Numbered from the stretch's first letter, positions 14,769 through 31,542 are shown. The stretch is DNA of 64,000 nucleotides from Acidobacteriota bacterium (GCA_022711665.1 JAKLEN010000005.1:130619-194618), one strand, 5' to 3'. Made by a program: numbers and translations. Notes: a model not told the origin generated them from the sequence alone.

Positions 14769-15398
14769 CTAGTGTCCGCCGCTGACCTTGTAGCCCATCT
14801 CCCTCAGCTTGGCCGCCCATCTCTTCTCGGCGGCTTTCGATGCGGCCTGGTCGTAGTACTTGGTTTCGGGGGCCAGGTCCGGGCGCAGGCGCCGGCCGTA
14901 TTTCCGGGCGACGGGGGAGAAGAGCGGCCCGCGCCTGTTCCTCTTGCCCTTGCGGTGCTCCTCGAAGCGCTCTTCGGGGGTCTTTGACGTCTCGCCTACG
15001 TAAACGAACCCTTTTCCCTGGTCTTTGCAGCCCTTGGGGTCGAGCTCGATCACGTAGACCGTCCAGACCTTCGGGTCGCGGTTGACCGTGAATCCCTCCG
15101 ACTTGAGGCACTTGACGGCGGCCCGCTTTTCGCTGTCGGCTTCTTCCCGGAGCAGAAAAGGGCCCGATGTCAGGTCGTCGCGCAGCATGACCAGGTGGTC
15201 CCGAAGCCACTCCGGCCCTTTCCCCTTCAGCAGGGCCGCGAACCGATTCGACGGCTCCTGGGTGGTGATGGCCACATAGAGATTGGGCTTCCCGGGATCG
15301 CGGCGCGGCACGACATCGTCGAGCTCGACCACTAGGACATAATTGCGCGGCTCCCTTATGGACCGCCGCGGGCTTCGCCTATAGAAGCGCTTTCTCAA
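14769..15398 (-). CDS. Tandem GIY-YIG (YhbQ/UPF0213-like) nuclease-domain protein
   Basis: Two consecutive GIY-YIG-like modules (YVLVVEL...LYVAITT...GKG and VYVIEL...FVYVGET...EERFEEH...GKR). Confidence 0.55.
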   Translation of the reverse strand: MRKRFYRRSPRRSIREPRNYVLVVELDDVVPRRDPGKPNLYVAITTQEPSNRFAALLKGKGPEWLRDHLVMLRDDLTSGPFLLREEADSEKRAAVKCLKSEGFTVNRDPKVWTVYVIELDPKGCKDQGKGFVYVGETSKTPEERFEEHRKGKRNRRGPLFSPVARKYGRRLRPDLAPETKYYDQAASKAAEKRWAAKLREMGYKVSGGH

Positions 15399-15711
15399 GG
15401 CTCGTATGCCCCTGCCAGAAGAACTATCACCGGGCGGCGGGGAGTGTCAATGATGCGGGCGCGCGAACCGCAACCTGGGGACACATATCAACGTGCCGCC
15501 AAACCGTGCGCCCGGCCGTCCTCGGCCTGAAGGCGGAAGGGGTCACGGATTTCTTAGAATATTTTTCGGTCGCCGCGAATTTCGACCGCTCTAGCCTGTC
15601 TTTACCATATGAAGCCTGTAGTTTACTCCGGATCAGGTTGTCTGGGAGAGATGCAGAAAACCCAGGTCAACGCCTGTTTACCTGACTTGATGACAGCAGT
15701 TGTCTTATTTC

Positions 15712-15740
15712 TTGACATTTGTCTAACTTTGGGTTTAATT
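15712..15740 (+). promoter_or_regulatory. Candidate promoter (TTGACA-17-TTAATT) with GACA..TGTC palindromic half-sites upstream of the HTH-ImmA regulator gene
   Basis: AT-rich 377-nt intergenic region. Hexamers and two GACA/TGTC inverted motifs (around 15692-15706 and 15714-15723) read from the sequence. Confidence 0.35.
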
Positions 15741-15775
15741 TCCATCGCATCGAGTTTCATGGGGATTTTTAGGGA

Positions 15776-16834
15776 ATGGGGCAGTTTCTGCCGGCCCGTC
15801 TGAAGAAAGCCCGCGAAGACGCCGGGCTGACGCAGGAGAGCTTTGCCCGCTCGCTGGGTCTTTCCTCCGAGTTCATTTCCCTTCTCGAGGCCGGCAAGCG
15901 GGCCCCCTCGCTCGAGACGCTCTCTCGGATCTCCGCCGCTCTCCATAAGGACGCCGCCTTTTTCCTGGGCGATAAGGAGCCGGCCTTTAAAGTCCTGTTC
16001 CGGGCTCCGGCCGTCGAGATCAGCCAGATAGCCCGCCAGGAGCTGGAACGATTCAGACGCTATGTGGACGATTATATGCGTCTCGAGGAAGCGACCGGAC
16101 GCACCCTGGAGCTGGCGCCCCTCTATTCCGGCCGGCTCTCGCCTGAGCGGATGGCCGCCGAAGAAAGGCGCCGCCTGGGCCTCGGGGACGAGCCGGTCCG
16201 CGATATCTTCGCCCTGCTCGAACGCAACGGCCTGCGGATCCTGCGCGGCCCGTTGCCCCCGGCCGTTGCGATCTCCGGCGTTTTCGTCTTCCTCGAGGCC
16301 CGTAACGCCGCTTTCGCCCTTATCAACTCGGCCCAAACCCCGTGCCGCCAGGCCTTCACCGCGGTTCATGAATACTGCCATTACCTCAAGGACCGCAGCG
16401 AGCCGCCGATCATCGATACCCACCGGATCTTCGAGGATGCCGCCAGGCCGAAAGCCGCGCGGAAAGAGGCGCGCTTCGATAAGAAGGATCAGTTCGCCCA
16501 GGAGTTCGCCGCCCACTTCCTGATGCCTCCGGCCAAGGTCCGGGAGATCGTCGAACGGGATTTCGGAGCCGGCCGGCTGTCCTACGACGACGTCCTGCTC
16601 ATCAAGCGCTATTTCGGGGTCAGCGCCCAGGCCATGCTTCGGGCCCTGTGCAATTTGGGGCTGCTCACCGCCGGCCGGCATCAGGAATATGCCCGGCTCG
16701 ATCCGGTTCAGCACGAAAAGAGAGTGTTCGGCGGAACCGACGAGGACTATGGGCCGGGATCGGGGCTTGATTCGGCTGGGATCGTCGTTTCCGACCGGTA
16801 TCGCCTGATGGAACGGGAGGTCTCATCACAATAG
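15776..16834 (+). CDS. Fused XRE-family HTH / ImmA(IrrE)-family zinc metallopeptidase regulator (COG2856-like)
   Basis: N-terminal HTH_XRE (LKKAREDAGLTQESFARSLGLSSEFISLLEAGKRAPSLETLSRISAAL). C-terminal HEXXH (HEYCHY) within an ImmA/IrrE-like domain. Confidence 0.8.
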   Translation: MGQFLPARLKKAREDAGLTQESFARSLGLSSEFISLLEAGKRAPSLETLSRISAALHKDAAFFLGDKEPAFKVLFRAPAVEISQIARQELERFRRYVDDYMRLEEATGRTLELAPLYSGRLSPERMAAEERRRLGLGDEPVRDIFALLERNGLRILRGPLPPAVAISGVFVFLEARNAAFALINSAQTPCRQAFTAVHEYCHYLKDRSEPPIIDTHRIFEDAARPKAARKEARFDKKDQFAQEFAAHFLMPPAKVREIVERDFGAGRLSYDDVLLIKRYFGVSAQAMLRALCNLGLLTAGRHQEYARLDPVQHEKRVFGGTDEDYGPGSGLDSAGIVVSDRYRLMEREVSSQ

Positions 16835-16972
16835 TGAGCGATATGAAATTACTAAATGTGCAATGCAGGCCTCAGGCAGGGAGACTGACTTGATTTAGCC
16901 CCCATTAATAAGCAATGCTTTTGGAAAGATTGTAAGCAGCAGATCAAGATTCGATAATAATAGCCAATTGGA

Positions 16973-18502
16973 ATGGGGTTTTCTATGCCTAAGACAAAAG
17001 CCTATGGGCAAGTAGTTCAATCACAGAAATATGAAATTGCTGATCCCAGGCCAAGCGCTCTAATCGAATCGCTTAGGTCTGTAGGATATAAGCTTTCCAC
17101 AGCGATCGCCGATATCGTTGATAACAGCATTGCGGCCGATGCAAGAAACATTTGGATACGTTTTAAATGGGCGGGAGCGAAATCGCTCATTTCGATCATA
17201 GATGATGGACGGGGAATGACAGAAAGTGCCTTGGTAGAAGCGATGCGGCCTGGCTCAATTAGTCCGATCGTCGAGCGCAGTCAGACCGATTTAGGGCGTT
17301 TCGGGCTCGGCCTAAAAACAGCGTCCTTTTCTCAATGTAGACGCCTTACCGTTATTTCGCGTAGCAAGGGCTGTCGTGCTGTAACCCGCGTCTGGGACCT
17401 TGATTATGTTGTCCGTCATGATGAATGGCGCCTTTTAAGAAGTGGAGATGAGCTTGAGGAAGGCGTAGCCAGTTTCGCGAAGACTGAGACGGGAACTGCA
17501 GTCATTTGGACACACCTTGACCGAATAATAACGCAAGGTGAGAATGCTAATGACGCGTCTGCACATAATCGATTTAATGATTCCATTGACCAAGTGCGTC
17601 AGCACTTGGCGGTTATTTATCACAGGTTTATCGAAGCTGGAGAGGTCAGGATATTTATAAATAACAATCTTGTTAATGGGTGGAATCCTTATCTAGAAAA
17701 CCATAAAGCTACTTATAGAGCACCTGATGAGATTATTCCTTTCGGGAAATCAAAGATTTATTTTCGTGGTTACGTATTGCCTCACAAGGATATGCTAACA
17801 CATGAACAATACGAATCTGCGGCAGGTCCATTAGGCTGGACAGCACACCAAGGATTTTACGTCTACAGAAACAGGCGACTTCTTGTTCCCGGCGATTGGC
17901 TAGGATTAGGGAGTCCAAAGCCGTGGATAAAAGCAGAGCACTATAACTTGGCACGCATATGTCTAGATATTTCTAATGACGCTGATAATGAATGGCATCT
18001 TGATGTGAAGAAATCTATGGCTCGGCCACCTGCTCTGGTTAAAGAAAGACTAACTGAACTTGCCGAAAACATACGAAAGCGGGCACGATCCGTTTTTGCC
18101 CATAGGGGAAAATATGGAGCACGAATTTCGCCCATATCTGAATATGAAAGGCCTTGGGAAGCAAAAACACGTCAGGGATATCGCATATATAAAATAAACC
18201 GAGGTCATCCTGCCGTTAGCCAGGCAATTCAGGCTGCTGGGACGGCAGCTCCCGATATAGAATCGATGCTGAGGATTCTCGAAGAAACCGTGCCGGTACA
18301 GCAGATATGGCTGGACATCGCAGATCAGACTCAAGACGTTGCTCGTCCATTTATCGGTACCGATTATTCTGTTATACGTTCAGATCTCCGGAAAATCTAT
18401 ATTTTCTTAACAAAGTCCGGAATAGATAGGAATACGGCTCTCGCGCGACTGAAGGCTATGGAACCATACAACCACTATACTAATCTTATTAACGAGCTAT
18501 AA
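16973..18502 (+). CDS. GHKL-superfamily ATPase (HATPase_c_3 / MORC-like)
   Basis: Bergerat-fold motifs: N-box DNSIAADA, G1 box DDGRGM, G2 box GRFGLGLK. First gene of the low-GC operon. An alternative ATG at 16985 is possible. Confidence 0.8.
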   Translation: MGFSMPKTKAYGQVVQSQKYEIADPRPSALIESLRSVGYKLSTAIADIVDNSIAADARNIWIRFKWAGAKSLISIIDDGRGMTESALVEAMRPGSISPIVERSQTDLGRFGLGLKTASFSQCRRLTVISRSKGCRAVTRVWDLDYVVRHDEWRLLRSGDELEEGVASFAKTETGTAVIWTHLDRIITQGENANDASAHNRFNDSIDQVRQHLAVIYHRFIEAGEVRIFINNNLVNGWNPYLENHKATYRAPDEIIPFGKSKIYFRGYVLPHKDMLTHEQYESAAGPLGWTAHQGFYVYRNRRLLVPGDWLGLGSPKPWIKAEHYNLARICLDISNDADNEWHLDVKKSMARPPALVKERLTELAENIRKRARSVFAHRGKYGARISPISEYERPWEAKTRQGYRIYKINRGHPAVSQAIQAAGTAAPDIESMLRILEETVPVQQIWLDIADQTQDVARPFIGTDYSVIRSDLRKIYIFLTKSGIDRNTALARLKAMEPYNHYTNLINEL

Positions 18503-18516
18503 GAACGGAGACAGGA

Positions 18517-21333
18517 ATGGAAACCAATGCTGCCCTAGCCATATGCCAAATATTATTAGGGCAAAAGCGGGCCAATAAAGATGCCGCTATTTGCCGTGAA
18601 GACATATTAGCGGTTGTTGAACAATTCGCCGCTCTAGAACCCGCCAAAGGCATAGATAAAGAGGAATTGGTTAAAACGCTTGAGGAACGTTTCACCGTCT
18701 ATGTGCCGAATCATCTTACTCTCGGATCGGATGACAACCATATTGCTTGGTTGTCGGCAAAACGCAGCTCTATTAATTGGCAATATTGGGAACGTTATAA
18801 AAATTATCTTGAAGGGCTACTCCCACCCGCTGCTGTTGAGGGCGTGGGCAAAACCACGGAGGAAATATTACAGCGCCTTGAAGATCCTTATCGTACGGGT
18901 ATTTGGGACAGGCGCGGCTTAGTGATGGGGAATGTTCAATCAGGAAAGACCGCCAACTATTGCGGCCTCATATGCAAGGCGGCAGACGCCGGATACAAGG
19001 TCATTATCGTCCTTTCTGGAATTCATAATAGCCTGCGTAGTCAGACACAAATTCGATTAGACGAAGGATTTCTTGGATTCATGAGCGAACCGCTGGCTGA
19101 CGGGACGCGGGGTTTTGTCCCCGCAGGGGTGGGCATTAACGGCCCTAGCATCAATCCCAATACTGCTACAAATCGGACGGAGCGTGGTGATTTTAATCGT
19201 ACGATAGCTAGCCAATTCGGAATTCATCCAGGCGGCCTGCCTCTCCTCTTTGTTACGAAGAAGAACGTGAGTGTGCTTAGGAACCTCAACAATTGGATAT
19301 CTTCTTGTATGAATGCCAAAGATCCATCGACGACTAGGCGCTTTGTCAGAGATGTCCCTCTTCTGGTGATTGACGACGAAGCCGATCTCGCGTCGGTAGA
19401 TACGCATTTTCAAGAGCTTGATGAAAACGGCAACCCTGACCCTGATCATAATCCGGCCGAAACCAATAAGCAGATTAGGAAACTCCTACGAGCATTCGAA
19501 AAGGTTGCCTATGTCGCCTATACGGCTACACCGTACGCGAATATTTATATTTATGATAGAGGATTTACGCCCCTATTAGGCGACGACCTTTTTCCTAGAA
19601 GCTTCGTTGTCAGCATTCCTCCCCCGAGTAACTATATGGGTCCTGCGCGTGTATTTGGGATTTCGGAAGACGAAGATGCAGGCCTAGAGGAGGTAACGCC
19701 ATTACCGGTAATACGAAACGTAAAAGATCATGCAGTCAGCGCTGATATGAATGAAACCCGGGGATGGATGCCCCCTCGACTAATCGCCGGAACTGACCAT
19801 ATGCCCCGTTATCTGGGAGAACGACGTATACCTCCGACATTACGAGAAGCAATTCTCTCCTTTATTTTAGCATCGATAGTACGCAAATCTCGTGGCTGTC
19901 TGCCCGCACATAATTCTATGCTCATCCATGTCGTCCGCTATACAAAGGTTCAAAAGCTTGTTTCAGATCAAGTAGAAGAAACTCTCCGCGAGATAACACA
20001 GCGCCTGAGGTATGGGGACGGCAGCCGCCGTCCGACGATAACCGATGAGTTCCGGAATCTTTATCTTAAAGATTTCAAGAAAACGACAGAAAGCTGTAAT
20101 AAAATCCTAAACGACAGGCTCGAGCTTCCAGTCTGGACAGCAATCACGCCGGCCTTGCTATCTACAGCGACGAGCATAAAAGTAAAGATTATTAACGGTA
20201 GCGCTGGGGATGTTCTAGATTATGAAGAGAATAAGAAGACTGGGATGAACGTGATCGCTATTGGAGGAGACAAACTCTCGCGCGGGCTAACTCTTGAGGG
20301 TCTTTCCATCAGCTATTTTTTACGGGCTTCTCGTATGTACGATACGTTAATGCAGATGGGGCGGTGGTTCGGCTATCGTGGGCAATATATTGACATTTGC
20401 CGACTCTATACTACTTCAGAGCTAATAAAGTGGTTTGCTCATATCACTGCAGCAGCAGAGGAGCTTCGGCATGAGTTTGAACGGATGGTATCTGTGGGCG
20501 GTACGCCGAAAGATTATGGACTGAAAATCCGTGCACACCCTGCCCTATTAGTAACATCGGCTGTTAAGATGCGTCACGGGACTTCAATGAGGATATCTTT
20601 TTCTGGCGAGATTAGTGAAACGATAATATTCCAGCGGGAACCTTGGTGGGTCCTAAGTAATTATGATGCGACCGTAGGTCTGCTTTCTAGCCTGCCAATG
20701 GAAAAATATTTAGGGTTTCGTAATTCCGGTTATACATGGCAAGAAATTCCCATAGAGACGGTACTTCAATATTTGAATGAGTACAAGACTCACAATGATG
20801 TCCGTCGGGCGGACACCGCGTTGCTGGCAAAATATATCCGGGCACAAAACGAAAATGGTGAATTAGCTAAATGGACCATTCATTTGTGCTCTTCAGGTAA
20901 AGCTGACGCAATACGTGAAGCAATAGGCAATCAGAAGGTTGGCCTTATTATGCGCGCGCCATTCCCTCAGCCTTATGACCCGCAAGCGGATCGATATACA
21001 ATCAGACGGCTGGTAAGCCCGACTGATGAACTTGTAGATTTAAGCAAAGAACAGCAGCAAGAGGCAATTCGGTTGACTCAAGAACGATGGAAAGCTGAGC
21101 ATAGAATGGGCGAGCCGGAAAGAGCAGGCGGAAGGGAGATACGTAAGGTCCGTGATAAGAACAACGGATTATTGCTTCTATATCCCATCGGGCCGCCTAG
21201 CTTTTATCCTGCCGGAACGAAGCCAATTATAGGGATGGCCATTAGTTTTCCAAAGAGCGACACCGCAAAAGAAGTGATTTATACAGTGAACAATGTGTTT
21301 ACGCAGCAGGGCGGAGATGATGAAAGCTTCTGA
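18517..21333 (+). CDS. Z1-domain protein (large P-loop NTPase, 938 aa)
   Basis: Walker A GNVQSGKTANY and a Walker B-like LLVIDDEAD. The size and position next to AIPR, GHKL and Dcm genes match the Z1 family. GGAG RBS upstream. Confidence 0.75.
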   Translation: METNAALAICQILLGQKRANKDAAICREDILAVVEQFAALEPAKGIDKEELVKTLEERFTVYVPNHLTLGSDDNHIAWLSAKRSSINWQYWERYKNYLEGLLPPAAVEGVGKTTEEILQRLEDPYRTGIWDRRGLVMGNVQSGKTANYCGLICKAADAGYKVIIVLSGIHNSLRSQTQIRLDEGFLGFMSEPLADGTRGFVPAGVGINGPSINPNTATNRTERGDFNRTIASQFGIHPGGLPLLFVTKKNVSVLRNLNNWISSCMNAKDPSTTRRFVRDVPLLVIDDEADLASVDTHFQELDENGNPDPDHNPAETNKQIRKLLRAFEKVAYVAYTATPYANIYIYDRGFTPLLGDDLFPRSFVVSIPPPSNYMGPARVFGISEDEDAGLEEVTPLPVIRNVKDHAVSADMNETRGWMPPRLIAGTDHMPRYLGERRIPPTLREAILSFILASIVRKSRGCLPAHNSMLIHVVRYTKVQKLVSDQVEETLREITQRLRYGDGSRRPTITDEFRNLYLKDFKKTTESCNKILNDRLELPVWTAITPALLSTATSIKVKIINGSAGDVLDYEENKKTGMNVIAIGGDKLSRGLTLEGLSISYFLRASRMYDTLMQMGRWFGYRGQYIDICRLYTTSELIKWFAHITAAAEELRHEFERMVSVGGTPKDYGLKIRAHPALLVTSAVKMRHGTSMRISFSGEISETIIFQREPWWVLSNYDATVGLLSSLPMEKYLGFRNSGYTWQEIPIETVLQYLNEYKTHNDVRRADTALLAKYIRAQNENGELAKWTIHLCSSGKADAIREAIGNQKVGLIMRAPFPQPYDPQADRYTIRRLVSPTDELVDLSKEQQQEAIRLTQERWKAEHRMGEPERAGGREIRKVRDKNNGLLLLYPIGPPSFYPAGTKPIIGMAISFPKSDTAKEVIYTVNNVFTQQGGDDESF

Positions 21334-22348
21334 GGAACTAATTCAGATATGGAACCTTGTTATGGAAGACAAGGGGGATCTACCAGGCTATTATTACCGC
21401 AGGATGCAGAAAGAGCTTCCTTTCCCCGTTTATGCTGGGATTATTAATCCAGGACGTTTGCGCTGTATTTCTATATTGGTGGATACAGAAGCTCTTGGCG
21501 TTGCTGCTCAGCGAGACGAAACAAATGGTTATTCCGTAAGAATTGAGTTGGCAGAAGCTGGCACACATAAGTCATTCATTCACCTCGCCTCAAGAATGGA
21601 GGCAGGGAATGATGAATTATTCGTATTCCTATGCGCTGATTTGCTTGGGTTATGCCGTTCGGATATGGAGGGCCACAAGGCTGTCGCCGCAATCTTTCAC
21701 CGACTATCTTATTGGCGTCGATTTTTTCAGCGACATGGCGGAGGATTGAGCAGAGAAGAAATCATTGGTCTTTATGGAGAACTCCGATTTCTTGAATTAT
21801 TGCTTGATTATGGAGTTCCGTCAGAATTAGCAGTCATGGCATGGAAGGGACCCCTTGGAACAAATCAGGATTTTCTCTTTGGTTCTAAAGCAGTGGAAGT
21901 GAAGTGCACGACTGCCAATGAAGCAGATATTGTAAAAATTACTAGTGAGAGGCAGCTGGATTCTACTGGGCTAACAACACTATTCCTTTTTCATCAAGCC
22001 TTTGACTTCCGGGAGAATTCTGGGAGAACATTAAAAAAGCTTATCGGTGATATTAAGAAGCGTCTAGAAGACACATCGCCGCACGCAATAATCCTATTCG
22101 AGGAATTACTTATTTCGGCCGGATATTCGGGCGAGTATAAACCTGTTTTCGACAACTATGGGTTCACGGAAAGGAAGCAATCGGCGTTCGAAGTCCAGCC
22201 AAGTTTCCCACGTATCGATGAGACAGCACTACCTGGTGGAGTTTCCCGTGTATCCTACCAATTAGATTTGGCTGTCTGCCATAAGTATAGGATTCATATT
22301 GAAGCGATCTTTCGTGCTTTAATGACTGGAGAGCAGAGTGGACAATGA
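21317..22348 (+). CDS. PD-(D/E)XK-superfamily nuclease (predicted)
   Basis: D...EVK core (QDFLFGSKAVEVKCT). Start ATGATG overlaps the Z1 stop by ~17 nt (track ORF begins at 21293). Translational coupling is suggested. Confidence 0.6.
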   Translation: MMKASEELIQIWNLVMEDKGDLPGYYYRRMQKELPFPVYAGIINPGRLRCISILVDTEALGVAAQRDETNGYSVRIELAEAGTHKSFIHLASRMEAGNDELFVFLCADLLGLCRSDMEGHKAVAAIFHRLSYWRRFFQRHGGGLSREEIIGLYGELRFLELLLDYGVPSELAVMAWKGPLGTNQDFLFGSKAVEVKCTTANEADIVKITSERQLDSTGLTTLFLFHQAFDFRENSGRTLKKLIGDIKKRLEDTSPHAIILFEELLISAGYSGEYKPVFDNYGFTERKQSAFEVQPSFPRIDETALPGGVSRVSYQLDLAVCHKYRIHIEAIFRALMTGEQSGQ

Positions 22349-24419
22349 ACGGGTAATAGTTCAGTTCCATCAGCAAATCGAGAGTGAAATCACAGAATCC
22401 ACACGGCAGGAGGGCGGCTTTGGCTCGGGTGAGTTCCGTGAGAACGTGCTGACGAGTATTTATGCGGAAGAGCTCTCGGCTGCGGGCGTGCTTGAATCGC
22501 CGGAAGTATGTCATTTGGAGGGCGGTAAAGGCAATGCATCTATTAAGGTGAATGGGTATGGGGTTCCGGAAGAGGATTCGCGGATAGACCTATTTATTAC
22601 GCTTCATTATGGCCCTTCGGATGAGATTGTCACTATAAATGCAGCGGAAGTCGAAACGGCGTTTAAAAAATTAGAACGTTTCTTTGGAAAGAGCCTAGAC
22701 GGCCTGTATAAAGAGCTGGATCCGGCTGGCGATCAATACTTGATGGCGGAGCATATCCAAGGGCTAAAGGCCAAAATGGACCGAGTCTGTTTCTATTTAT
22801 TTACTAATGCCAGACTGGCACAGAGAAAGGAAAAAGAACATAAGTCCGATATCTTTGGGCTTGAAGCTGTTTATGAAGTATGGGACCTGGAGAGATTTCG
22901 CCGCCTGAGAGAAAGTGGAACCAGCTATGAGGCATTGGTGGTCAACCTCGAAGATCAGAAGCTGGGAGGTCTTCCGTGCGTTCTCTTAGGAACAAATGGA
23001 GGCAATTCCCAAACTTGCGTGACTTTGTTCCCTGGGGAACTGCTTTGTGAACTCTATGATGAGTACGGGCCACGCCTGCTTGAACTGAATGTAAGGTCAT
23101 ACCTACAGGCGCGAGGCAAAGTAAACAAAGGAATAATGGAGACCCTCCAGAAAAGTCCACAAGATTTTTTAGCTTATAATAACGGGATAACGGTCGTTGC
23201 CGAAGAGATCATATTCGGAAAACTTTCTAATGGTTCACTGGGAATATTAGAGCTTCGTGGAATGCAAATCGTAAATGGAGGCCAGACAACCGCATCGATA
23301 CATAGGGCAGCAAAGGACTTCGGGGCTGACCTTTCGTGCGTAAGTGTGCAGGGGAAAGTGACGGTCGTTGACGGGGCCCGTTTTCAAGATATAGTGCCCT
23401 TAATATCACGATTTTCAAATACCCAAAATCGCGTAACAGAAGCTGACCTGAGCGCTAACCATCCTTTCCATATCGGGATGGAAAGAGTTTCTAGGCGGGA
23501 ATGGACGCCCGACCAACGCAGTATGTGGTTCTATGAACGCGCACGCGGAAGCTATCAGACGGCGAAGATCCGTGAAGGCAACACTCCTTCGAAAAGGAAG
23601 GCTTTTGAAGATAGGTACCCCAGTAACCAGCGGTTTTCGAAAGAAGATTTGGCCAGATTCGAAAACACTTGGCTTGGTTTGCCCCATATTGTTAGTCGTG
23701 GAAGTCAAAAGAACTTTGTCCACTTCATGCATGAGCTGGGGCAATACGACGAAGGTTGGGAGCCAGATATGGATCAGTATCGGCAGTATGTTGCGAAGGG
23801 GTTACTTTTCAAAGAAGCTCAAAGGGTAATTCGGGCAGATAGGAGGATAACAGCATATCAGATTAATGTAGCGGCCTATACCGTTGCCCTTCTAGCCGAA
23901 AAAACAGCCCGCCGACTAGACCTAAAACGTATATGGCGAATGCAGAAGGTTTCTGAAGCGACGTCAGAACTGCTGGCGGCTTGGGTGCCAATAGTATTTA
24001 AACACCTTCCTGATTATGCAGCAAAGGTGGGGAAACACATTGGTGAGTCCTTCAAGGCGTCCGCATGCTGGGATAATATCCGAGGGTTGGATCTGGTTGT
24101 GCCGAAAACTATTGATAAAGAACTCGTGGATGTCCCTGCAGGGGAAGACGAATTATCCGCAGCCAGGCGGCGTGATAGCAGGAAGCTGTCTTCAAATGAC
24201 AAGAATAACATAGCACGGTGCATGGAACTTGGGCAGAAAGAATGGCTGGCGATAGCTCTTTGGGGCCAGAAAACTAACATTCTTGCGGATTGGCAAAGGG
24301 GAATTGCCCGTACTCTTTCCGGATATGCTGCCGAAAAATGGGTAAAAAGGCCAAGCTCCAAACAGGCCTATCATGGTGTTCACATGATCGAAAGTGCACG
24401 AACGGCGGGTATCTTATAA
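22338..24419 (+). CDS. AIPR-family protein (abortive infection phage resistance family)
   Basis: N-terminal region with the GEFRENVLTSIYAEELSAAGVLE..RIDLFITLHY pattern typical of AIPR proteins. GTG start overlaps the previous stop by 11 nt. Size (693 aa) fits the family. Confidence 0.7.
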   Translation: MDNERVIVQFHQQIESEITESTRQEGGFGSGEFRENVLTSIYAEELSAAGVLESPEVCHLEGGKGNASIKVNGYGVPEEDSRIDLFITLHYGPSDEIVTINAAEVETAFKKLERFFGKSLDGLYKELDPAGDQYLMAEHIQGLKAKMDRVCFYLFTNARLAQRKEKEHKSDIFGLEAVYEVWDLERFRRLRESGTSYEALVVNLEDQKLGGLPCVLLGTNGGNSQTCVTLFPGELLCELYDEYGPRLLELNVRSYLQARGKVNKGIMETLQKSPQDFLAYNNGITVVAEEIIFGKLSNGSLGILELRGMQIVNGGQTTASIHRAAKDFGADLSCVSVQGKVTVVDGARFQDIVPLISRFSNTQNRVTEADLSANHPFHIGMERVSRREWTPDQRSMWFYERARGSYQTAKIREGNTPSKRKAFEDRYPSNQRFSKEDLARFENTWLGLPHIVSRGSQKNFVHFMHELGQYDEGWEPDMDQYRQYVAKGLLFKEAQRVIRADRRITAYQINVAAYTVALLAEKTARRLDLKRIWRMQKVSEATSELLAAWVPIVFKHLPDYAAKVGKHIGESFKASACWDNIRGLDLVVPKTIDKELVDVPAGEDELSAARRRDSRKLSSNDKNNIARCMELGQKEWLAIALWGQKTNILADWQRGIARTLSGYAAEKWVKRPSSKQAYHGVHMIESARTAGIL

Positions 24420-24422
24420 GCT

Positions 24423-25979
24423 ATGACGATTACAAAGTACCCCATTCCCGTTATTGATCTATTTGCCGGTCCAGGGGGACTTAGTGAGGGATTCTCTTCC
24501 TATGAGGAAGGATCTACTTTTTGTGTACGGCTTTCAATTGAAAAGGACAGATTCGCTCATCGGACTCTTGAGTTGCGGGCATTCTTTCGTAGTTTCGACG
24601 AAGATCCTCCCTCTGAATATTATAATTACCTTAAACATCAAATTAGTCGCGAAGAGCTATTCAAGATGTTTCCGACGCAAGCCAATAAGGCCAGGAACCA
24701 AGCTTGGCAGGCTGAACTAGGGAACAGGAAATATCCCAAAGCTCAGGTAGATAAGAAGATCAGGACTGCTCTGGGAAGACATGGTGACCGCTGGGTTCTT
24801 ATCGGAGGTCCTCCCTGCCAAGCTTATTCACTCATCGGCCGCTCTCGGATAAAGGGAAAGAGTATTAAGGATTATGAATCCGATAATCGCCATTTTTTAT
24901 ATCGCCAATATTTGAAGATATTGGCTGAACATAAGCCTCCTGTATTTGTAATGGAAAACGTAAAGGGATTATTATCCACGGAAATTAACGACCAGAGGAT
25001 TGTCGAACATATCCTCCGCGATTTACGGAACCCTAGTCAAGCAGTACGGAATAGTTCAAAGCATAATGGTGCCGAATATGTACTTCATTGTTTAGCGCCG
25101 ACAAAGAAGCAATACACAGAACTGACTCCTGAGGACTTTATCGTAAAGTCTGAGGCATATGGAATACCGCAAACGCGTCACAGGATCATTTTACTGGGAA
25201 TCCGAGCCGACGTACGCGTAAAACCAAAACACTTGATACCACAAGAAAGCACATTGTCGGTCGAACAAGCGATTGGAGATGTTCCGCCCGTAAGGAGCGG
25301 CATATCAAGAATGATTGATTCTTATGAACGATGGCTAGCGGTGGTTCGTAGCATTACTCGCTCTGAATGGCTAAAGGAGGGGGCTGTTACGAAAGAGATT
25401 CGTGGCGCTATAAAAGCCGTAGCAGAAAGCCAAAATCTGGCTTTTTCTCGGGGGGGGGAGTTCGTGAAAACTGTAGCTGCCCCCCAAATAATGGCGGAAT
25501 GGTTTAGGGATACCAGACTGCGCGGCGTATGTAACCATAGCACTCGCAGACATATGGAGAGTGATTTGCATCGGTATTTATTCGCTTCAGCATATGCGCA
25601 AGTTAATGGACATTCCCCACGACTGATTGATTTTCCGAAGGGATTGTTGCCAGATCATGCCAATGTCGGAGATGCGATCCGCGACCGGAAGTTCGGGGAT
25701 CGTTTTCATGTCCAAGTATCAAACCGTCCTGCATCCACGGTCACGGCCCATATATGCAAAGACGGTCACTATTTTATTCATTATGATTCAAAACAATGTC
25801 GTAGTCTTACGGTTCGTGAAGTAGCACGTCTGCAGACATTCCCAGATAATTATTTCTTTGAAGGGCCGAGGACTGAACAATATAGACAGGTCGGAAATGC
25901 GGTACCGCCGTTATTAGCTATTCAAATTGCCGATATTGTTGCGGGGATTTTTTATCAGGCTGGCAACCAAAAGGCATAA
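24423..25979 (+). CDS. DNA (cytosine-5)-methyltransferase, Dcm-type
   Basis: Motif I DLFAGPGG, motif IV GGPPCQAYS, motif VI ENVKGL, motif X VGNAVPP. Starts 3 nt after the AIPR stop. Confidence 0.95.
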   Translation: MTITKYPIPVIDLFAGPGGLSEGFSSYEEGSTFCVRLSIEKDRFAHRTLELRAFFRSFDEDPPSEYYNYLKHQISREELFKMFPTQANKARNQAWQAELGNRKYPKAQVDKKIRTALGRHGDRWVLIGGPPCQAYSLIGRSRIKGKSIKDYESDNRHFLYRQYLKILAEHKPPVFVMENVKGLLSTEINDQRIVEHILRDLRNPSQAVRNSSKHNGAEYVLHCLAPTKKQYTELTPEDFIVKSEAYGIPQTRHRIILLGIRADVRVKPKHLIPQESTLSVEQAIGDVPPVRSGISRMIDSYERWLAVVRSITRSEWLKEGAVTKEIRGAIKAVAESQNLAFSRGGEFVKTVAAPQIMAEWFRDTRLRGVCNHSTRRHMESDLHRYLFASAYAQVNGHSPRLIDFPKGLLPDHANVGDAIRDRKFGDRFHVQVSNRPASTVTAHICKDGHYFIHYDSKQCRSLTVREVARLQTFPDNYFFEGPRTEQYRQVGNAVPPLLAIQIADIVAGIFYQAGNQKA

Positions 25980-26066
25980 TGACTCATACATTTCCCAAGA
26001 CCGCTTTTGCCCATCTTAGCAATTCATGTGCATAACCTCCAATATGGGGAGCACGATATCTTAGAA

Positions 26067-26513
26067 TTAGCCGGGACACCTATCGGCTTCCTTTTTAATA
26101 TTAGGTTTTCGCCGGACTAACTGAAGAAGCCGTATTTTCCATTCGGGATTTTCCACCTCGCATTCCCATATTGTGAAATAAGTCCATCCCAATACTTGTA
26201 CCTTCTGGGCAATCTCAATATCCCGCCTTTGATTCTCAACGAATTTCTTTTTCCAAAAATCAGTTCTTGACTTTGGCATGTATGCATACTTACATGATTT
26301 ATGCCGATGCCAGTAACATCCATGAACGAATATTGCAATCTTGTATTTTGGAAGTAAGATATCGGGGGATCCCGGCAAGATACCGGGAGTCAAAGAAAAA
26401 CGAAATCCCATGTGATGTAGCTGCGAACGAGTTCGGATTTCGGGCATAGTATTTCGTGACCTAATCCTTGACATATTCCAACTGCGCTTTGCCGGGGGAA
26501 TTCGGTCAGTCAT
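26067..26513 (-). CDS. vsr: Very-short-patch-repair endonuclease
   Basis: FVHGCYWHRH and TxPExRxxL motifs. 148 aa. Convergent with the methyltransferase gene. Confidence 0.95.
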   Translation of the reverse strand: MTDRIPPAKRSWNMSRIRSRNTMPEIRTRSQLHHMGFRFSLTPGILPGSPDILLPKYKIAIFVHGCYWHRHKSCKYAYMPKSRTDFWKKKFVENQRRDIEIAQKVQVLGWTYFTIWECEVENPEWKIRLLQLVRRKPNIKKEADRCPG

Positions 26514-26965
26514 TCATAAGCCACCCGTTTTTTAGATTAACAGGATAGCTTATATAGAACAAGAAGCTATGAGACAATGAAATTCCGTCCGTGATGGAGA
26601 TAAAAAGCCTCCGCATGGAACATTGGCCAACTTCCAGACCAACGGTGAATTCCCCATGACGACTGCCAATTGTTCAGGGTCTGGGCATATATGAATAATT
26701 TTATTCGTAAGCGCGAAAACATACTGCTTTGCGGTGTCGTTCCCTTATGGGAACGGGCGTATAGGGGGGCTGCCTGAGGGAATGGGCCTCGTGGGCTTGG
26801 CCCTAGCCGTAAGGCGGGACGAAAGATCATGACGAAATGAGCGCTACGGAGAGCTACGGCATTTAACCCAGGGGCGGGTCCTCCCGCGACTGGCCGGAGT
26901 CCGAGCAGGAGGTCTATTGGCGCCTGGATGGGTCGCTGCCGGAGGACTGGACTGTCTGGCACTCG

Positions 26966-27409
26966 ATGAGGGTCCGGACGACCGGCGCGGAGTTCGCCGA
27001 ATCGGACTTCATCATCACCGACCCCGCCCGTGGCGTCCTCGGCCTTGAGGTCAAGGGCGGCCTCCTCGACAAGAAGGACGGCGCCTGGCGGCAGAACGGC
27101 CAGGCCATGAGATCCTTGCCGCTCGACCAGGCGCACCGCTTCATCATGTTACTCCTGGCCAAGTTCAGGGAAAAGGATCGTATCTCGCCGCCGATCGGCG
27201 TGGCCGCCGCCTTCCCGGACACAGATTTTGAAATCCCGGCCTCCCAGGGCGACCTTGTCGCTGATGTCGCGCCCGGGACCGGCCGGTATGCGGTGCGGAT
27301 GAACATCACCGTCAGCCGGGCTTGCGGCGCCCTACGGATCGTCATTTCCCGCAGCGAGCTCGATAAGGACCCGATCCTGAAGCGCCTCGCCGAGGACGGA
27401 AGGAGATAG
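26966..27409 (+). CDS. NERD-domain protein (PD-(D/E)XK-like nuclease-related domain)
   Basis: DFIITDP...GVLGLEVKGG core. Intermediate GC. The upstream frame is closed by TAA at ~26864, so 26966 is the only ATG start. Confidence 0.5.
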   Translation: MRVRTTGAEFAESDFIITDPARGVLGLEVKGGLLDKKDGAWRQNGQAMRSLPLDQAHRFIMLLLAKFREKDRISPPIGVAAAFPDTDFEIPASQGDLVADVAPGTGRYAVRMNITVSRACGALRIVISRSELDKDPILKRLAEDGRR

Positions 27410-28357
27410 GTGCCGATGGCATTTGATCGTGTTCATGACGCCCGCATCAGGGCCGCGGCCTTCGAGTGGCTGACGGATCAGGTTCTGCGGCATGGAGACG
27501 TGCTGCCCCGCAGCCTCCTGGTCCAGGGATTCTATTTCGGGGACTCGAGGGTTCCGCTGGTCGGCCCGCAGGGGATCTTCAAGCCTCGCATCCTCGAGCT
27601 GCCGCTGTCGATTACGACGGCGCCGGAAGGCCCCTATAACGATGCCTTCGGCCCGGATAAATTGCTGCGCTACCGTTACCGGGGGACCGACCCGGACCAT
27701 AGAGACAATCGGGGGCTGCGGGAGGCCATGGCGAACCGGTTGCCGCTGGCTTATTTCCATGGGATCGCGCCCGGACGATATATGGCGGCTTGGCCTGTCT
27801 TCATAGTCGGCGACCATCCTGATCCATTCTCGCCGTCGTTCTCGGTAGCTGTCGATGACAAGGGGCATTTGGGTGTCGTCGCCGAGGACCGAAATGAGCG
27901 TGGCGCCGTGGGCGAGGAAGGCGATACCGCCCGGCGGCAATACATAACGTCCACCGTTCGGGTCCGGCTCCACCAAAGAGCCTTCAGGGAGCGCGTGCTC
28001 GAGGCCTATCGCCGGCAATGCGCGTTCTGCCGGCTCAGGCATGAGGAGCTGCTCGACGCCGCCCACATCATTCCGGACGCGAGCCCGGAAGGCGAGCCCG
28101 TGGTCCAGAACGGGCTGGCGCTGTGCAATCTCCATCATGCGGCGTTCGACAAGTTCTTTATCGGGGTGCGGCCTGACTACGTCATCGAGATCCGCCCGGA
28201 TATCCTGAGAGAGGGGGACGGTCCAACGTTGAGGCACGCGATCCAGGGGCTGAACGGGACGAGCATCCTGGTGCCCGAGCGGCTGAGTCTAAGGCCGGAT
28301 CAAGCGCTCCTTTCGAAGCGTTATGAGCGGTATCGCGAGGCCGCCCGGGAATACTAG
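27410..28357 (+). CDS. HNH endonuclease, COG3440/HNH_2-like (candidate modification-dependent type IV restriction enzyme) with uncharacterised N-terminal domain
   Basis: C-terminal CAFCRL...LDAAHIIP...NGLALCNLHHAAFD HNH signature. ~200-aa N-terminal domain (GIFKP...YRYRGTDPDHRDNRGL). The likely ATG is at 27416, preceded by GGAAGGAGA. Confidence 0.75.
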   Translation: MPMAFDRVHDARIRAAAFEWLTDQVLRHGDVLPRSLLVQGFYFGDSRVPLVGPQGIFKPRILELPLSITTAPEGPYNDAFGPDKLLRYRYRGTDPDHRDNRGLREAMANRLPLAYFHGIAPGRYMAAWPVFIVGDHPDPFSPSFSVAVDDKGHLGVVAEDRNERGAVGEEGDTARRQYITSTVRVRLHQRAFRERVLEAYRRQCAFCRLRHEELLDAAHIIPDASPEGEPVVQNGLALCNLHHAAFDKFFIGVRPDYVIEIRPDILREGDGPTLRHAIQGLNGTSILVPERLSLRPDQALLSKRYERYREAAREY

Positions 28358-28442
28358 GTGCCGGAATGCGCATGGTTCACGCGCGCTCCCGGGTGGATGA
28401 CAGGATTGAGCCGGGGGCCCTTGCGAGCATAAGCAGATATCG

Positions 28443-28943
28443 CTAGGCCCGAAGCAGGGCCGAGTAGATGGCGTGGTCGGCGGCCGAGAAGCAGCAGAAT
28501 GTCACTTCGATCCCGCAAGCCGGGTGCCCGTCGAGGAATTCCCGTACGGCCTTGACCGCGACCGCGGCCGCGAGCTCTATGGGATAGCCGTAGACGCCGG
28601 TGCTGATCGAGGGGAAGGCGATCGACCGTACGCCGTTCTCAAGAGCAACTTCGAGCGACTTGAGATAGCAGCCGCGGAGGAGTGCAGGCTCGTTCGCGCG
28701 GCCGCCCCGCCAGACGGGCCCGACCGTGTGGATGACGAACCTGGCCGGGAGCCTGTAGCCCTTCGTGATCTTGGCCTCGCCGGTCGCGCATCCTCCGAGG
28801 GTGCGGCATTCGGCGAGTAGCTCGCGTCCCGCGGCGCGGTGGATGGCCCCGTCGACGCCGCCTCCGCCGAGGAGCGAGGCATTCGCGGCGTTGACGATCG
28901 CGTCGACCTCGAGGGTCGTGATGTCGGCGACGACGGCTTTCAT
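28443..28943 (-). CDS. Macro-domain protein (YmdB-like O-acetyl-ADP-ribose deacetylase / ADP-ribose hydrolase)
   Basis: [23 protein letters not shown] and [15 protein letters not shown] motifs. 166 aa. Confidence 0.85.
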
Positions 28944-29089
28944 TTATGCCTCTCTTCGGGGCCTTCCTTACTCTAGGGGCGGAACGCGGGGCTGTCAAAT
29001 CGTTCTGCAGCCGGGCCGTCCCAGGCGACGCGTTGAGACGATCGAATCCGAGACGGGCGCGGGCCGCGAAAAGGCCGGGGAAATCGCCT

Positions 29090-29118
29090 TTGACAGCAAG
29101 ACGCTATAACGCTATGAT
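29090..29118 (+). promoter_or_regulatory. Sigma70-type promoter of the TA operon (TTGACA-17-TATGAT) with ACGCTAT direct repeats overlapping the spacer/-10
   Basis: Hexamers and the repeated ACGCTAT(A/G) read from the sequence. GGGAGGG RBS before the ATG at 29136. Confidence 0.5.
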
Positions 29119-29135
29119 GTTTAAGGGAGGGCAGA

Positions 29136-29369
29136 ATGACTGGTTCAAACAAGCGCGTGACGATCTATCTCAAGCCGGAGTTCCATAGGGCGCTGAAGGT
29201 CAAGGCCGCGGAAACCGAGTATTCCATCTCCGACCTGGTCAATTCGGCCGTCAAGCGGGCGCTCCTCGAGGACGCCGTCGATCTCGAGGCCTTCGAAAAG
29301 CGGGCTGGAGAGCCGCTGCTTGCCTTCGAGGACGTCGTCAGGGACCTCAAGCGCCATGGAAAGCTATAG
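29136..29369 (+). CDS. Type II antitoxin (RHH/CopG-like fold predicted)
   Basis: 77-aa acidic protein immediately upstream of, and overlapping, a ParE/RelE toxin gene. The N-terminal KRVTIYLKPEFHRALKVKAAE pattern fits a ribbon-helix-helix antitoxin. Confidence 0.55.
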   Translation: MTGSNKRVTIYLKPEFHRALKVKAAETEYSISDLVNSAVKRALLEDAVDLEAFEKRAGEPLLAFEDVVRDLKRHGKL

Positions 29370-29616
29370 GGTCCTTGTCCGGAGGTCCGCGGCCGGAGAG
29401 TTGGCGGACATCCCGAAAAAGGACCTGGCCCGCGTCGTCGCCAGGATCGGCAAGCTGGCCTTGCAGCCGAGGCCCGACGGATGCGAGAAGCTCTCCGGGC
29501 AGGAGAGATACCGGGTCAGGCAGGGGGACTATCGAGTCGTCTACTCGATCGATGACGAGAACCGGGTCGTCGAGATCGTCAAGATCGGCCGCCGCAGCGA
29601 GATCTATCGGCGATAA
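29356..29616 (+). CDS. ParE/RelE-family toxin
   Basis: YRVVYSIDDENRVVEIVKIGRRSEIY C-terminal signature. ATG overlaps the antitoxin stop. Confidence 0.75.
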   Translation: MESYRVLVRRSAAGELADIPKKDLARVVARIGKLALQPRPDGCEKLSGQERYRVRQGDYRVVYSIDDENRVVEIVKIGRRSEIYRR

Positions 29617-29629
29617 GCTGGATCGGCCT

Positions 29630-31357
29630 TCATCCGATCTCGAGGATGCGGTCGAGGCGGAAGGTGCGGCACTCGCCGCGGCTGTGGCAGAAGGCGCGCA
29701 GGCCCTCGAAGGTCCGGCCGTGGTACTCCATCATCTCCACTGATTCGGGCCGGATGCGGCGGCGTGACTTCTTGTCGTCGGGCTTGAGGTAGACGATCTC
29801 GAGCTCGCGGCCGTCGCGGATGGCCTCGAGGAGGAGAGCGCGCTTGTCGGCCGGGGGCAGGGCCTGCTCGGCCTTCTTGTACTGGAAGCGGGTCAGGAAG
29901 CGGACGATGCGCCAGTCCATCAGGATGTGAGCGCGGCGGATGGGCGTCCGCAGGACCAGGCCCTCGAACGAGGTGCAGCGGCTCAGGGCGACGTAGACCT
30001 GGCCGTGGGCGAAGGCGCCGCGGCCGATGTCGACGACCACGCGCTCGAAGGTCTTGCCCTGGCTCTTGTGGATGGTCACGGCCCAGGCCAGGCGCAGCGG
30101 GTACTGGGTGAAGGCGCCGACGGCCTCGGAGTCGATGCGGTCCTCCTCGGCGTCATACTGGAAGCGGAAGAGCTCCCAGGTGTTGGGCCCGACGTCGACC
30201 TCGGCGCCGCCGGCGAGCTCGACCGTGACGATGTCGTCGGCGTCGATGTCCTCCGACTTGCGGATGCGGGCGACGCGGCCGATCGTGCCGTTGACCCAGC
30301 GGCCCTTGCGGTCGTTGGTCAGGAGCATGACCTGGGCGCCGGGCTTGAGCTCGAGGGCCTCCTCGGTCGGCAGGGAGCGGCGGTCGAACTCGCCGTCGAC
30401 GAGGCCCTCGTAGCGGCGGGCGTGGCCGCTCAGGGCGGCCAGCTTCTCGCGGTTGCGGGCGGCAGCCAGGTCGTTGGTGCTGGTCAGGGTGATGTAGAAC
30501 CGGTCGTCGGGCGGGACGAAGGCGGAATCGAGGCGGCTGTTGAGAAGGGCGATCTGGGCGTCGTCGATCGAGCGGTTGCGGATGGCGTTGAGCAGGCCGA
30601 TGAAAGCGGCGTCGTTCTGGCGGTAGACTTTCTCCAGCTCGACGAAGTCCATGTCGAAGCCGGGCTCGGCGAAGACGCGGGCCGAGAAAAAGTAGGGCGA
30701 CTCGTAGCGGGGGGCGGAAGCGCCGGACGTCAGGACGGCGGCGGGGGAGGGGCCGGCGTTCCCGGCGCCCCAGCGGCGGAGCGAGACCGGGTCGGGAGCG
30801 AAGAGGCCGCGCTCCTGGCCGGTGACCACGGGCGGCAGCTGGTAGAGGTCGCCGATGAAGATCATCTGCAGGCCGCCGAAGCGCTCCTTGGGGCGCGGGC
30901 CGTTGAGGCGCAGGAACTTCTCGACGCAGTCCATCAGGTCGGCCCGGACCATCGAGACCTCGTCGATGACGATGGCGTCGAGGTTGCGGTACAGGGCGAC
31001 CCGGTCGGCGGCGGCACCGCGGCCCTTGGAAAGCTTGCGCACCGACTCGGGCGTGACGTCGGGCTTGAAGCCGAAGAACGAGTGGATGGTCTGGCCGCGG
31101 ACGTTGAGGGCGGCGACACCGGTCGGGGCCAGGACGGCGATCTTCTTGAGCGTCTGGTTGCGCCAGAGCTCCAGGAGGGTCGATTTCCCGGTGCCGGCCT
31201 TGCCGGTGATGAAGACGTGGCGCGAGGTGCCCTCCATGATATCGAGTGCCCGCCGGAAACCGGGATTGATCTCGATGGCCGGCGCCTTGCCCGGCGTCCG
31301 GCCCGGAGACCGGTCCGGCTCGTCCGGTTTCGGTTTGCGAGCGCTTTTCCTGGTCAT
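29630..31357 (-). CDS. Pif1/RecD-like SF1 helicase fused to C-terminal WYL domain
   Basis: Walker A GKAGTGKST, Walker B IVIDEVSMV, the Pif1 signature LYQLPPVV, and VYVALSRCTSFEGL. The C-terminus ends ...GECRTFRLDRILEIG (WYL-type). Internal ATG (MTRKSARK) chosen as start. Confidence 0.8.
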   Translation of the reverse strand: MTRKSARKPKPDEPDRSPGRTPGKAPAIEINPGFRRALDIMEGTSRHVFITGKAGTGKSTLLELWRNQTLKKIAVLAPTGVAALNVRGQTIHSFFGFKPDVTPESVRKLSKGRGAAADRVALYRNLDAIVIDEVSMVRADLMDCVEKFLRLNGPRPKERFGGLQMIFIGDLYQLPPVVTGQERGLFAPDPVSLRRWGAGNAGPSPAAVLTSGASAPRYESPYFFSARVFAEPGFDMDFVELEKVYRQNDAAFIGLLNAIRNRSIDDAQIALLNSRLDSAFVPPDDRFYITLTSTNDLAAARNREKLAALSGHARRYEGLVDGEFDRRSLPTEEALELKPGAQVMLLTNDRKGRWVNGTIGRVARIRKSEDIDADDIVTVELAGGAEVDVGPNTWELFRFQYDAEEDRIDSEAVGAFTQYPLRLAWAVTIHKSQGKTFERVVVDIGRGAFAHGQVYVALSRCTSFEGLVLRTPIRRAHILMDWRIVRFLTRFQYKKAEQALPPADKRALLLEAIRDGRELEIVYLKPDDKKSRRRIRPESVEMMEYHGRTFEGLRAFCHSRGECRTFRLDRILEIG

Positions 31358-31542
31358 CCCGGGGATTTTCTCCCAAATCAGACGCCGACGCAATCGGTCC
31401 GTTCGTCGGCGCATCGCTTCCGCCGTTCTAGAGGACGATCCGGAGGAGGCGCTTTTCTCACGCCGGCGCCGGGCTTGCGCCAAGTCCGTCCGGTTATGTA
31501 TACTTCCCGTCAATCATCTTCCTTGACGGCACGGGGGCGGAC

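Follow-up and report, generated by a model that had tools for sequence, protein, structure and literature searches.

The subject of this analysis is a pair of adjacent open reading frames (ORFs) at 26,966-28,357 of a 64,000-nt stretch of DNA from an Acidobacteriota bacterium (GCA_022711665.1 JAKLEN010000005.1:130619-194618), referred to as the window. An earlier note had read this pair as a NERD-domain gene and an HNH endonuclease gene forming a possible modification-dependent restriction module, in potential conflict with a neighbouring Dcm methyltransferase. The product of the second gene (27416-28357) is probably a Type IV modification-dependent restriction endonuclease that works alone and follows the reader-plus-HNH plan, i.e., one in which a domain that recognizes a modified base is fused to a nuclease. 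On the best reading, it is a new, lone-acting member of the Type IV SRA-HNH enzymes that has diverged in sequence, and the gene is for the most part an ordinary defence gene.

The nuclease half is the part recognized by sequence comparison. The ORF described previously is present (27410..28357, + strand, 315 aa from a GTG codon), it contains HNH_2 (PF13391, E 4e-11, aa 204-253 in the GTG numbering), its translation includes all of the quoted motifs (CAFC, AAHIIP, NGLALCNLHHAAFD and YRYRGTDPDHRDNRGL), and the reported ribosome-binding-site-like GGAAGGAGA was found where it had been placed. The start is the part of that description that did not hold, since it is most likely ATG 27416 (313 aa) rather than GTG 27410: most homologues begin with MFDR, the public gene calls give 313 aa, and the AGGAG core lies 10 nt from the ATG and 4 nt from the GTG. 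Counting residues from that ATG, Cys202-x-x-Cys205, Ala216-His217 (the general base), Asn232, Cys237-x-x-His240, His241 and Asp245 are present and conserved, and the C-terminal half has, as judged from its sequence, the zinc site and the catalytic His/Asn/His/Asp of an HNH beta-beta-alpha-Me nuclease. The pattern CxxC..AH..N..Cxx[D/C/H]-H-xxF-D is common to this protein (in its CxxH form) and to TagI, to whose residues 200-270 the HNH part aligns, and the HNH segment of TagI is the sole match of the family profile among PDB sequences (E 0.055). The TagI counterparts of these residues are required for activity, as validated by mutagenesis (PMC6212794). Every family-invariant position is kept in the window protein (three alignments), the ratio of nonsynonymous to synonymous substitution rates (dN/dS) of 0.10 against a 91%-identical relative points to purifying selection, and the gene is intact, with no decay. 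Distant proteobacterial members on Allochromatium, Methylibium and Azospirillum plasmids (L089-L091; 37-41% identity) keep the catalytic His/Asn/His and the conserved N-terminal residues; they have lost the second cysteine in CxxC and also the one in CxxH, so that their structural zinc site is probably gone.

The assignment of the N-terminal domain comes from structure prediction. In a first AlphaFold (AF2) model, built from 41 close homologues, the N-terminal 150 residues have a pLDDT of 80-96 and the HNH part is poor; a second one, from a more diverse alignment, reaches a pLDDT of 89 and a pTM of 0.81, and across both models aa 1-150 lie at pLDDT 80-97. Foldseek ranks SUVH5 SRA complexes and ScoMcrA at the top for the first model, and the closest structural neighbours of the reader are all readers of cytosine modifications. 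According to these models, the domain adopts the distorted beta-barrel of the SRA fold and is a divergent SRA-like barrel, and not a member of a non-DNA-binding family, which had been named beforehand as the outcome that would speak against modification sensing. The family motif G-P-Tyr74-x-Asp76 ... Tyr86-R-Y-R-G falls within this barrel, its three numbered residues being at least 90% conserved down to 37% identity, and further conserved residues are a GIFKP loop, Asn98, Tyr122 and Pro127. The spacing of 12 between Tyr74 and Tyr86 equals that of Y466/Y478 in UHRF1 and of Y55/Y67 in TagI, with the same strand order. In TagI, Tyr55 and Tyr67 enclose the flipped base, whose Watson-Crick edge is recognized by Asp58 (PMC6212794); the corresponding UHRF1 residues, confirmed against the verified sequence, are Y466, Y478 and D469. 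By this analogy, Tyr74, Asp76 and Tyr86 may form the flipped-base pocket.

Several points weigh against reading the protein in this way. Pfam (E<=0.01), NCBIfam and PADLOC gave no match in aa 1-190, all of their matches falling in the C-terminal half. The profile search that had been proposed for the N-terminal domain did not return SAD_SRA (PF02182), which is absent from 36 family members even at E<=10, and Pfam has no model for this reader. Among PDB sequences, the single sequence found no match with phmmer and the family profile found nothing for the N-terminal domain, and hhalign against the verified UHRF1 SRA sequence was negative, although canonical SRA domains easily detect each other (in a control, UHRF1 SRA picked up the SRA of TagI at 1e-20). 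Because all sequence methods were blank, the fold assignment depends on predicted structures, and the candidate pocket was mapped by pattern and secondary-structure order, its Asp standing at +2 from the first Tyr and not at +3. A search for TagI relatives with its HNH segment gave nothing but short fragments. Furthermore, SRA/PUA-like readers fused to HNH do not always read 5-methylcytosine (5mC), as exemplified by ScoA3V, which is stimulated by N6-methyladenine (6mA; PMC6765204), and by HHPV4I, whose SRA domain is not responsible for its specificity (PMC10101028). Finally, a promiscuous 5mC-dependent enzyme should be toxic here, given the active-looking Dcm/Vsr pair 1.4 kb away and the CCWGG-rich genome.

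If the enzyme works as TagI and ScoA3IV do, its divergent SRA-like barrel would take a modified base, in the most likely case a 5-substituted cytosine, and flip it from the duplex into a pocket walled by the two tyrosines, with the aspartate adjacent. A long helix would join this reader to the HNH_2 nuclease with its CxxC/CxxH zinc site, which probably dimerises and would nick or cut nearby DNA independently of ATP. Such an enzyme, which lacks a cognate methyltransferase, would be directed against modified DNA that phages or plasmids bring into the cell. The C-terminal ~110 residues are homologous to those of the NF045808 (PT-DNA_restrict) enzymes, which act on phosphorothioate (PT) DNA, and this homology suggests one nuclease module with interchangeable readers. 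The whole-protein score for NF045808 is 57.2 bits against a cut-off of 180, the alignment covering aa 188-297 and leaving the N-terminus unaligned. A sulfur-binding domain (SBD), the reader of phosphorothioate, was also considered for the N-terminus and rejected, as NF045808 aligns to the HNH half only and the predicted fold is that of SRA and not of SBD.

The same architecture might also serve to recognize something other than 5mC or 5-hydroxymethylcytosine (5hmC), e.g., 6mA, N4-methylcytosine (4mC), a hypermodified phage base or a backbone modification, and no conflict with Dcm would then arise. This is doubtful but has to be taken seriously, as the domain is too divergent for any SRA sequence profile, ScoA3V and HHPV4I provide precedents among PUA/SRA-HNH enzymes, the gene is intact and its coexistence with the Dcm island, seen on 14 contigs, is stable, and other readers are borne by the enzymes with which the family clusters, among them an SBD-HNH enzyme of the PT type. 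Nonetheless, the nearest structural neighbours all read cytosine modifications, and a conserved Tyr..Asp..Tyr with the SRA spacing suits a pyrimidine pocket, in which the carboxylate selects cytosine (PMC6212794). Should the specificity differ from that of TagI-type enzymes, the family could provide new modification-dependent nucleases for epigenetic mapping.

A word-indexed search for relatives of the HNH protein returned 7368 proteins at E<=1e-3 among 8000 candidates scored, and the best 120 homologues are 66-91% identical and 290-350 aa long, with HNH_2 as their sole Pfam domain. An exhaustive search with the N-terminal 195 residues gave 1702 representative clusters (50% identity level) at E<=1e-3, and none of the best 150 carries the domain in another architecture, the matches being full-length proteins of ~300 aa. 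In a one-genome-per-species scan, at least 586 stretches encode a member, and the best 80 of them, on which the context work was done, come from Aminicenantes (73%), Nitrospirales, Chloroflexota/Dehalococcoidia, Acidobacteriota, Gemmatimonadota, Binatia, Proteobacteria and others, at 53-73% identity. Copies that are 31-39% identical occur on RefSeq megaplasmids (Allochromatium, Methylibium, Azospirillum and Bradyrhizobium), where they are annotated just as “HNH endonuclease”, and the phage and plasmid collections hold distant homologues only (22-39%), labelled “HNH endonuclease” or “hypothetical protein” where annotated. The SRA-like-HNH family is, in short, very large (more than 7000 sequence clusters), highly conserved, spread over many phyla and wholly uncharacterised, and the predicted fold offers a function for a common family publicly labelled just “HNH endonuclease” or “putative restriction endonuclease”.

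For the genomic neighbourhood, genes were called in the fetched loci, neighbours were clustered, tblastn was run over 80 genome loci, and Pfam was applied to 99 immediate neighbours. The neighbours of SRA-like-HNH genes are heterogeneous, unrelated housekeeping genes, the sole recurrent family being HNH_2 (8 of the 99), and the listed top-25 Pfam families of the 99 include no recurrent methyltransferase family. Neither the window Dcm nor the N6/N4 methyltransferase found near the closest homologue (L001) has a tblastn homologue within 6 kb in the 80 loci. On this evidence the gene is solitary and has no cognate DNA methyltransferase, the Dcm in the window being part of a compositionally foreign island. 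Fewer than 6% of the ORFs for reader-nucleases of the PUA superfamily have a methyltransferase within 3 kb (Lutz et al., PMC6765204), and a solitary, horizontally mobile, methyltransferase-less reader-nuclease that clusters with similar enzymes is the signature from which modification dependence is argued in the literature.

Different genes were found next to members of the family. In L001 (1308-4579), genes for a DUF87 ATPase and for the N6/N4 DNA methyltransferase precede the closest homologue (91% identity), a neighbourhood unlike that of the window. The most frequent neighbour is a paralogous HNH_2 enzyme of ~305 aa with a different, unannotated N-terminal domain (motifs EVNFWQP and FLFKL), which lies within 6 kb in 14 of the 80 loci and is often directly adjacent or overlapping (e.g., L008 5467-6396, L086 4504-5433, L078 6933-7844 and L005 1822-2817). 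In L066, a bona fide PT-DNA restriction enzyme (287.6 bits against the cut-off of 180) stands beside the family gene. Genes for DUF2075/SLFN-type (Schlafen-group-3) helicase-nucleases adjoin reader-HNH genes in three independent contexts (the L003-L005 group, L008 and L069); their products carry an N-terminal D..ExK nuclease-like segment, and the genes sit directly upstream of the reader-HNH genes. A 787-aa DUF2075 helicase gene overlaps the HNH start by 4 nt in the L003-L005 group, and this overlap suggests that the two genes are translationally coupled in L004 and L005; the L004 protein has, after the DUF2075 match, a weak Peptidase_S24 match at its C-terminus. The DUF2075/Schlafen proteins may be an optional helicase partner of Type IV HNH enzymes.

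In 50 of 63 genome loci (among L007-L086), the HNH gene has a lower G+C content at third codon positions (GC3) than the genes around it (median difference -0.10, Wilcoxon p 2e-7). Although the proteins are 53-91% identical across phyla, this difference indicates that the gene is often transferred horizontally. Such traits would also fit a modification-independent HNH nicking enzyme or selfish mobile endonuclease whose N-terminal barrel merely binds DNA: in many phyla the gene stands alone among housekeeping genes unrelated to it, its conservation is unusually high, its GC3 is lower than that of its neighbours, and certain reader-HNH proteins nick weakly or unspecifically in vitro. Nevertheless, the family shows no association with inteins, introns, repeats or transposase genes, the SRA fold specifically reads flipped bases, and the genes co-cluster with other Type IV-like enzymes, which makes this alternative very unlikely.

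The NERD ORF beside the HNH gene is likewise present as the earlier note had described it (147 aa, + strand), but it is a pseudogene fragment of a NERD-UvrD gene of ~565 aa. Its NERD match is weak and partial (PF08378, E 4e-4, 21.3 bits against a cut-off of 22.1, profile positions 31-105 only). An intact NERD-UvrD helicase of 567 aa (Pfam NERD plus UvrD/AAA_19/AAA_30) adjoins a 78%-identical HNH homologue (P0004) in locus L006, and in tblastn its aa 1-140 match the window at 26837-27256 (61% identity), with a collinear second match in the same frame for aa 512-555 at 27254-27385 (also 61%); the 565-aa orthologue of L007, an Aminicenantes genome, gives the same picture. In the alignment of the three, the window has I-stop-P where its relatives have L-F-P, and 371 residues are gone in a clean deletion, including the Walker A GAGSGKT and the entire helicase (ATPase) core, leaving residues ~1-140 (most of the nuclease-like NERD domain, with D..ExK retained) and the last ~45. 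The frame is open from ATG 26966 back to the TAA, ATG 26837 lies nine codons before that stop, and ~43 N-terminal residues of the NERD domain are encoded upstream of the only usable start (ATG 26966). The in-frame TAA and the loss of 371 codons relative to L006 and L007 mark the ORF as a dead helicase remnant, a decayed gene that by this evidence yields no 147-aa NERD protein and contributes nothing now. It is recorded identically, with the same neighbours, on 14 public contigs, and should be flagged in annotation as a pseudogene and not be tallied as a defence gene.

This bears directly on the proposal that the NERD and HNH proteins jointly form a two-gene nuclease system, which, on sequence grounds, is largely refuted for the window and can be given hardly any credence. 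The arrangement does invite it: the ORFs abut on the same strand (the remnant stops with TAG at 27407-27409, GTG follows at 27410, and 6 nt separate the stop from ATG 27416), in L006 and L007 the HNH gene has an intact NERD-UvrD gene no more than 2 kb away, and in other relatives the DUF2075/SLFN helicase gene overlaps the HNH start by its 4 nt. However, besides the premature stop and the missing Walker A, the gene order varies among L006, L007 and the window, and the partner genes of the relatives have a host-like GC3 (0.89-0.94), unlike the HNH gene (0.63-0.66). A conserved NERD-helicase partner was rejected on the same survey, since NERD-UvrD occurs only in the closest relatives, L006 and L007, where it is differently arranged, and is missing from the other 79 genome loci.

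As for the potential conflict with Dcm, the genome has ~68% GC, and an island of 46% GC occupies ~16.9-26.8 kb of the window, both ORFs lying just to its right. The Dcm gene is part of this compositionally foreign island, at whose edges a search found no tRNA and no convincing direct or inverted repeats. The intermediate GC formerly ascribed to the pair turned out to be marginal: GC3 is 0.76 in the HNH gene and 0.85 in the NERD remnant, against 0.86-0.93 in host genes and 0.39-0.47 in the island. The island and the HNH gene occur in identical arrangement on 14 public contigs, with identical HNH DNA in the two loci fetched, and they coexist stably. CCWGG occurs 448 times in the window (both strands), 2.5-fold more than the 182 expected from dinucleotide-preserving shuffles, and if Dcm were specific for CCWGG (an assumed motif), the genome would be densely methylated. 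Known SRA-HNH enzymes are toxic in Dcm+ hosts, as seen for ScoA3IV and TbiR51I in E. coli, and the substrates of TagI include DNA methylated by Dcm, M.Fnu4HI or M.HpyCH4IV (PMC6765204, PMC6212794). There is also the example of Pectobacterium, in which the arrival of a Dcm-type system shuts down, through promoter methylation, a methylation-dependent HNH enzyme that was already resident (PMC8989522).

A 5mC-dependent enzyme that would attack the Dcm-methylated self DNA might be kept harmless in the window by silencing, low expression or exclusion of the site context. That toxicity and the direct precedent of promoter-methylation silencing favour such a conflict, the island abuts the helicase remnant, several CCWGG sites lie in 26868-27248, no sigma-70-like promoter was seen upstream of the HNH gene on its own strand (in a scan uninformative for this phylum), and the decay of the upstream helicase gene, together with its native promoter, may belong to the resolution. 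On the other hand, CCWGG as the motif of the window Dcm is an assumption, the promoter scan is uninformative in this phylum (as the terminator scan around the gene also was), and the HNH gene shows no decay whatsoever; a tamed conflict of this kind is, on balance, quite improbable. A somewhat less improbable, still tentative, solution is that the divergent SRA barrel reads a modification other than plain 5mC, or 5mC in a narrow context only, which would explain why the HNH gene can be intact in a genome rich in CCWGG, with a newly acquired Dcm only 1.4 kb away. The bolder idea that the loss of the NERD-UvrD helicase was the price of accommodating the methylase island is unsupported. In any case, the locus offers a natural test case for a resident modification-dependent nuclease tolerating a horizontally acquired cytosine methylase.

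The wider surroundings (Table 1) form a variable defence hotspot, which comprises 14769-31513 of the window and L003-L007, from Aminicenantes-like relatives, and in which SRA-like-HNH is the constant element. Its flanks are common to all of them, i.e., a GIY-YIG-like gene (74-78% identity) and a PIF1-WYL helicase gene (84-86%), and the cargo in between differs: an HNH_2 paralogue, the DUF2075 helicase and SRA-like-HNH in L005; SRA-like-HNH followed by NERD-UvrD in L006; an HNH_2 paralogue, NERD-UvrD, a PD-(D/E)XK nuclease and SRA-like-HNH in L007; and in the window a helix-turn-helix (HTH)-ImmA gene, the low-GC island, the NERD-UvrD remnant, SRA-like-HNH, a macro-domain gene and an RHH/ParE pair. 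The HTH-ImmA gene is a 352-aa ORF of host-like 64% GC at the left edge of the island (15776-16834, + strand); read by eye, its sequence resembles that of an XRE-type HTH plus ImmA/IrrE-like metallopeptidase regulator, and it may act as a regulator or else belong to a mobile element. The macro-domain gene (28443-28943, - strand; PF01661, E 6e-47) stands directly 3' of the HNH gene, and the RHH/ParE toxin-antitoxin pair (29136-29616, + strand) between it and the PIF1-WYL helicase gene.

Table 1. Coordinates of the features discussed (in the window unless a locus is given).
Feature	Position	Strand	Evidence or remark
GIY-YIG-like flank gene	14769-15398	-	
DNA methyltransferase (Dcm) gene	24423..25979	+	Pfam DNA_methylase E 1e-42, TIGR00675; GC 45% vs 68% in host
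Vsr very-short-patch repair endonuclease, partner of the methyltransferase, final gene of the low-GC island	26067..26513	-	Pfam Vsr E 3e-25; GC 43%
Pseudogene remnant of a NERD-UvrD (superfamily 1, SF1) helicase gene	26837..27409	+	tblastn, three-way alignment with L006/L007
In-frame TAA, codon 10 of the ancestral NERD-UvrD frame, where the relatives encode the conserved Phe of GLFP	26864..26866	+	sequence, L006/L007 alignment
147-aa ORF, longest ATG-initiated piece of the remnant, minus the first ~43 NERD-domain residues	26966..27409	+	ORF list, Pfam
Shine-Dalgarno-like GGAAGGAGA, within the end of the remnant ORF	27398..27406	+	AGGAG core 10 nt 5' of ATG 27416
Intact gene for 313-aa SRA-like-HNH endonuclease, predicted Type IV modification-dependent restriction enzyme	27416..28357	+	
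Predicted SRA-like beta-barrel reader domain, aa 1-148	27416..27859	+	candidate flipped-base pocket Tyr74, Asp76, Tyr86
HNH_2 beta-beta-alpha-Me nuclease core, aa 202-251	28019..28168	+	PF13391 E 4e-11 (ATG 27416 numbering)
PIF1-like helicase flank gene with C-terminal WYL domain	29630-31513	-	
DUF2075/Schlafen-group-3 helicase gene	L004 621-2984		
DUF2075/Schlafen-group-3 helicase gene	L005 2990-5353		
DUF2075/Schlafen-group-3 helicase gene	L008 3185-5467		
DUF2075/Schlafen-group-3 helicase gene	L069 1788-3719		

Among the known systems, the SRA-HNH enzymes TagI, ScoA3IV (Sco5333) and TbiR51I share the predicted architecture of the window protein, although their readers have no detectable sequence similarity to it and SAD_SRA is unmatched in its family. 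The window protein also differs from them in an extra long N-terminal helix (aa 5-26), in the position of the candidate Asp (+2 instead of the +3 of the known enzymes), and in its taxonomic range, since its family is found in Aminicenantes, Chloroflexota, Acidobacteriota and others, whereas these enzymes are mostly from Actinobacteria. Unlike the SBD-HNH phosphorothioate enzymes (SprMcrA type, NF045808) and ScoMcrA (SBD-SRA-HNH), it has no sulfur-binding domain, and compared with the EVE-HNH enzymes VcaM4I and TspA15I, its modelled reader resembles the SRA clade of the superfamily and not the EVE clade. ScoA3V (Sco5330), with 6mA-stimulated nicking, is similar in that its distant PUA-like reader, fused to HNH, is recognisable by structure prediction only; its homologues are reported only in Actinomycetales (PMC6765204). 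A parallel to the locus as a whole is PcaRCII facing PcaRCI in Pectobacterium (PMC8989522), as in both cases a resident, solitary, methylation-dependent HNH enzyme (in the window, a predicted one) meets an acquired Dcm-type methylase in a variable region. The N-terminal domain of PcaRCII is helical, and not SRA as predicted for the window protein, and the conflict and its resolution through promoter methylation, which are experimental in Pectobacterium (PMC8989522), are a possibility in the window.

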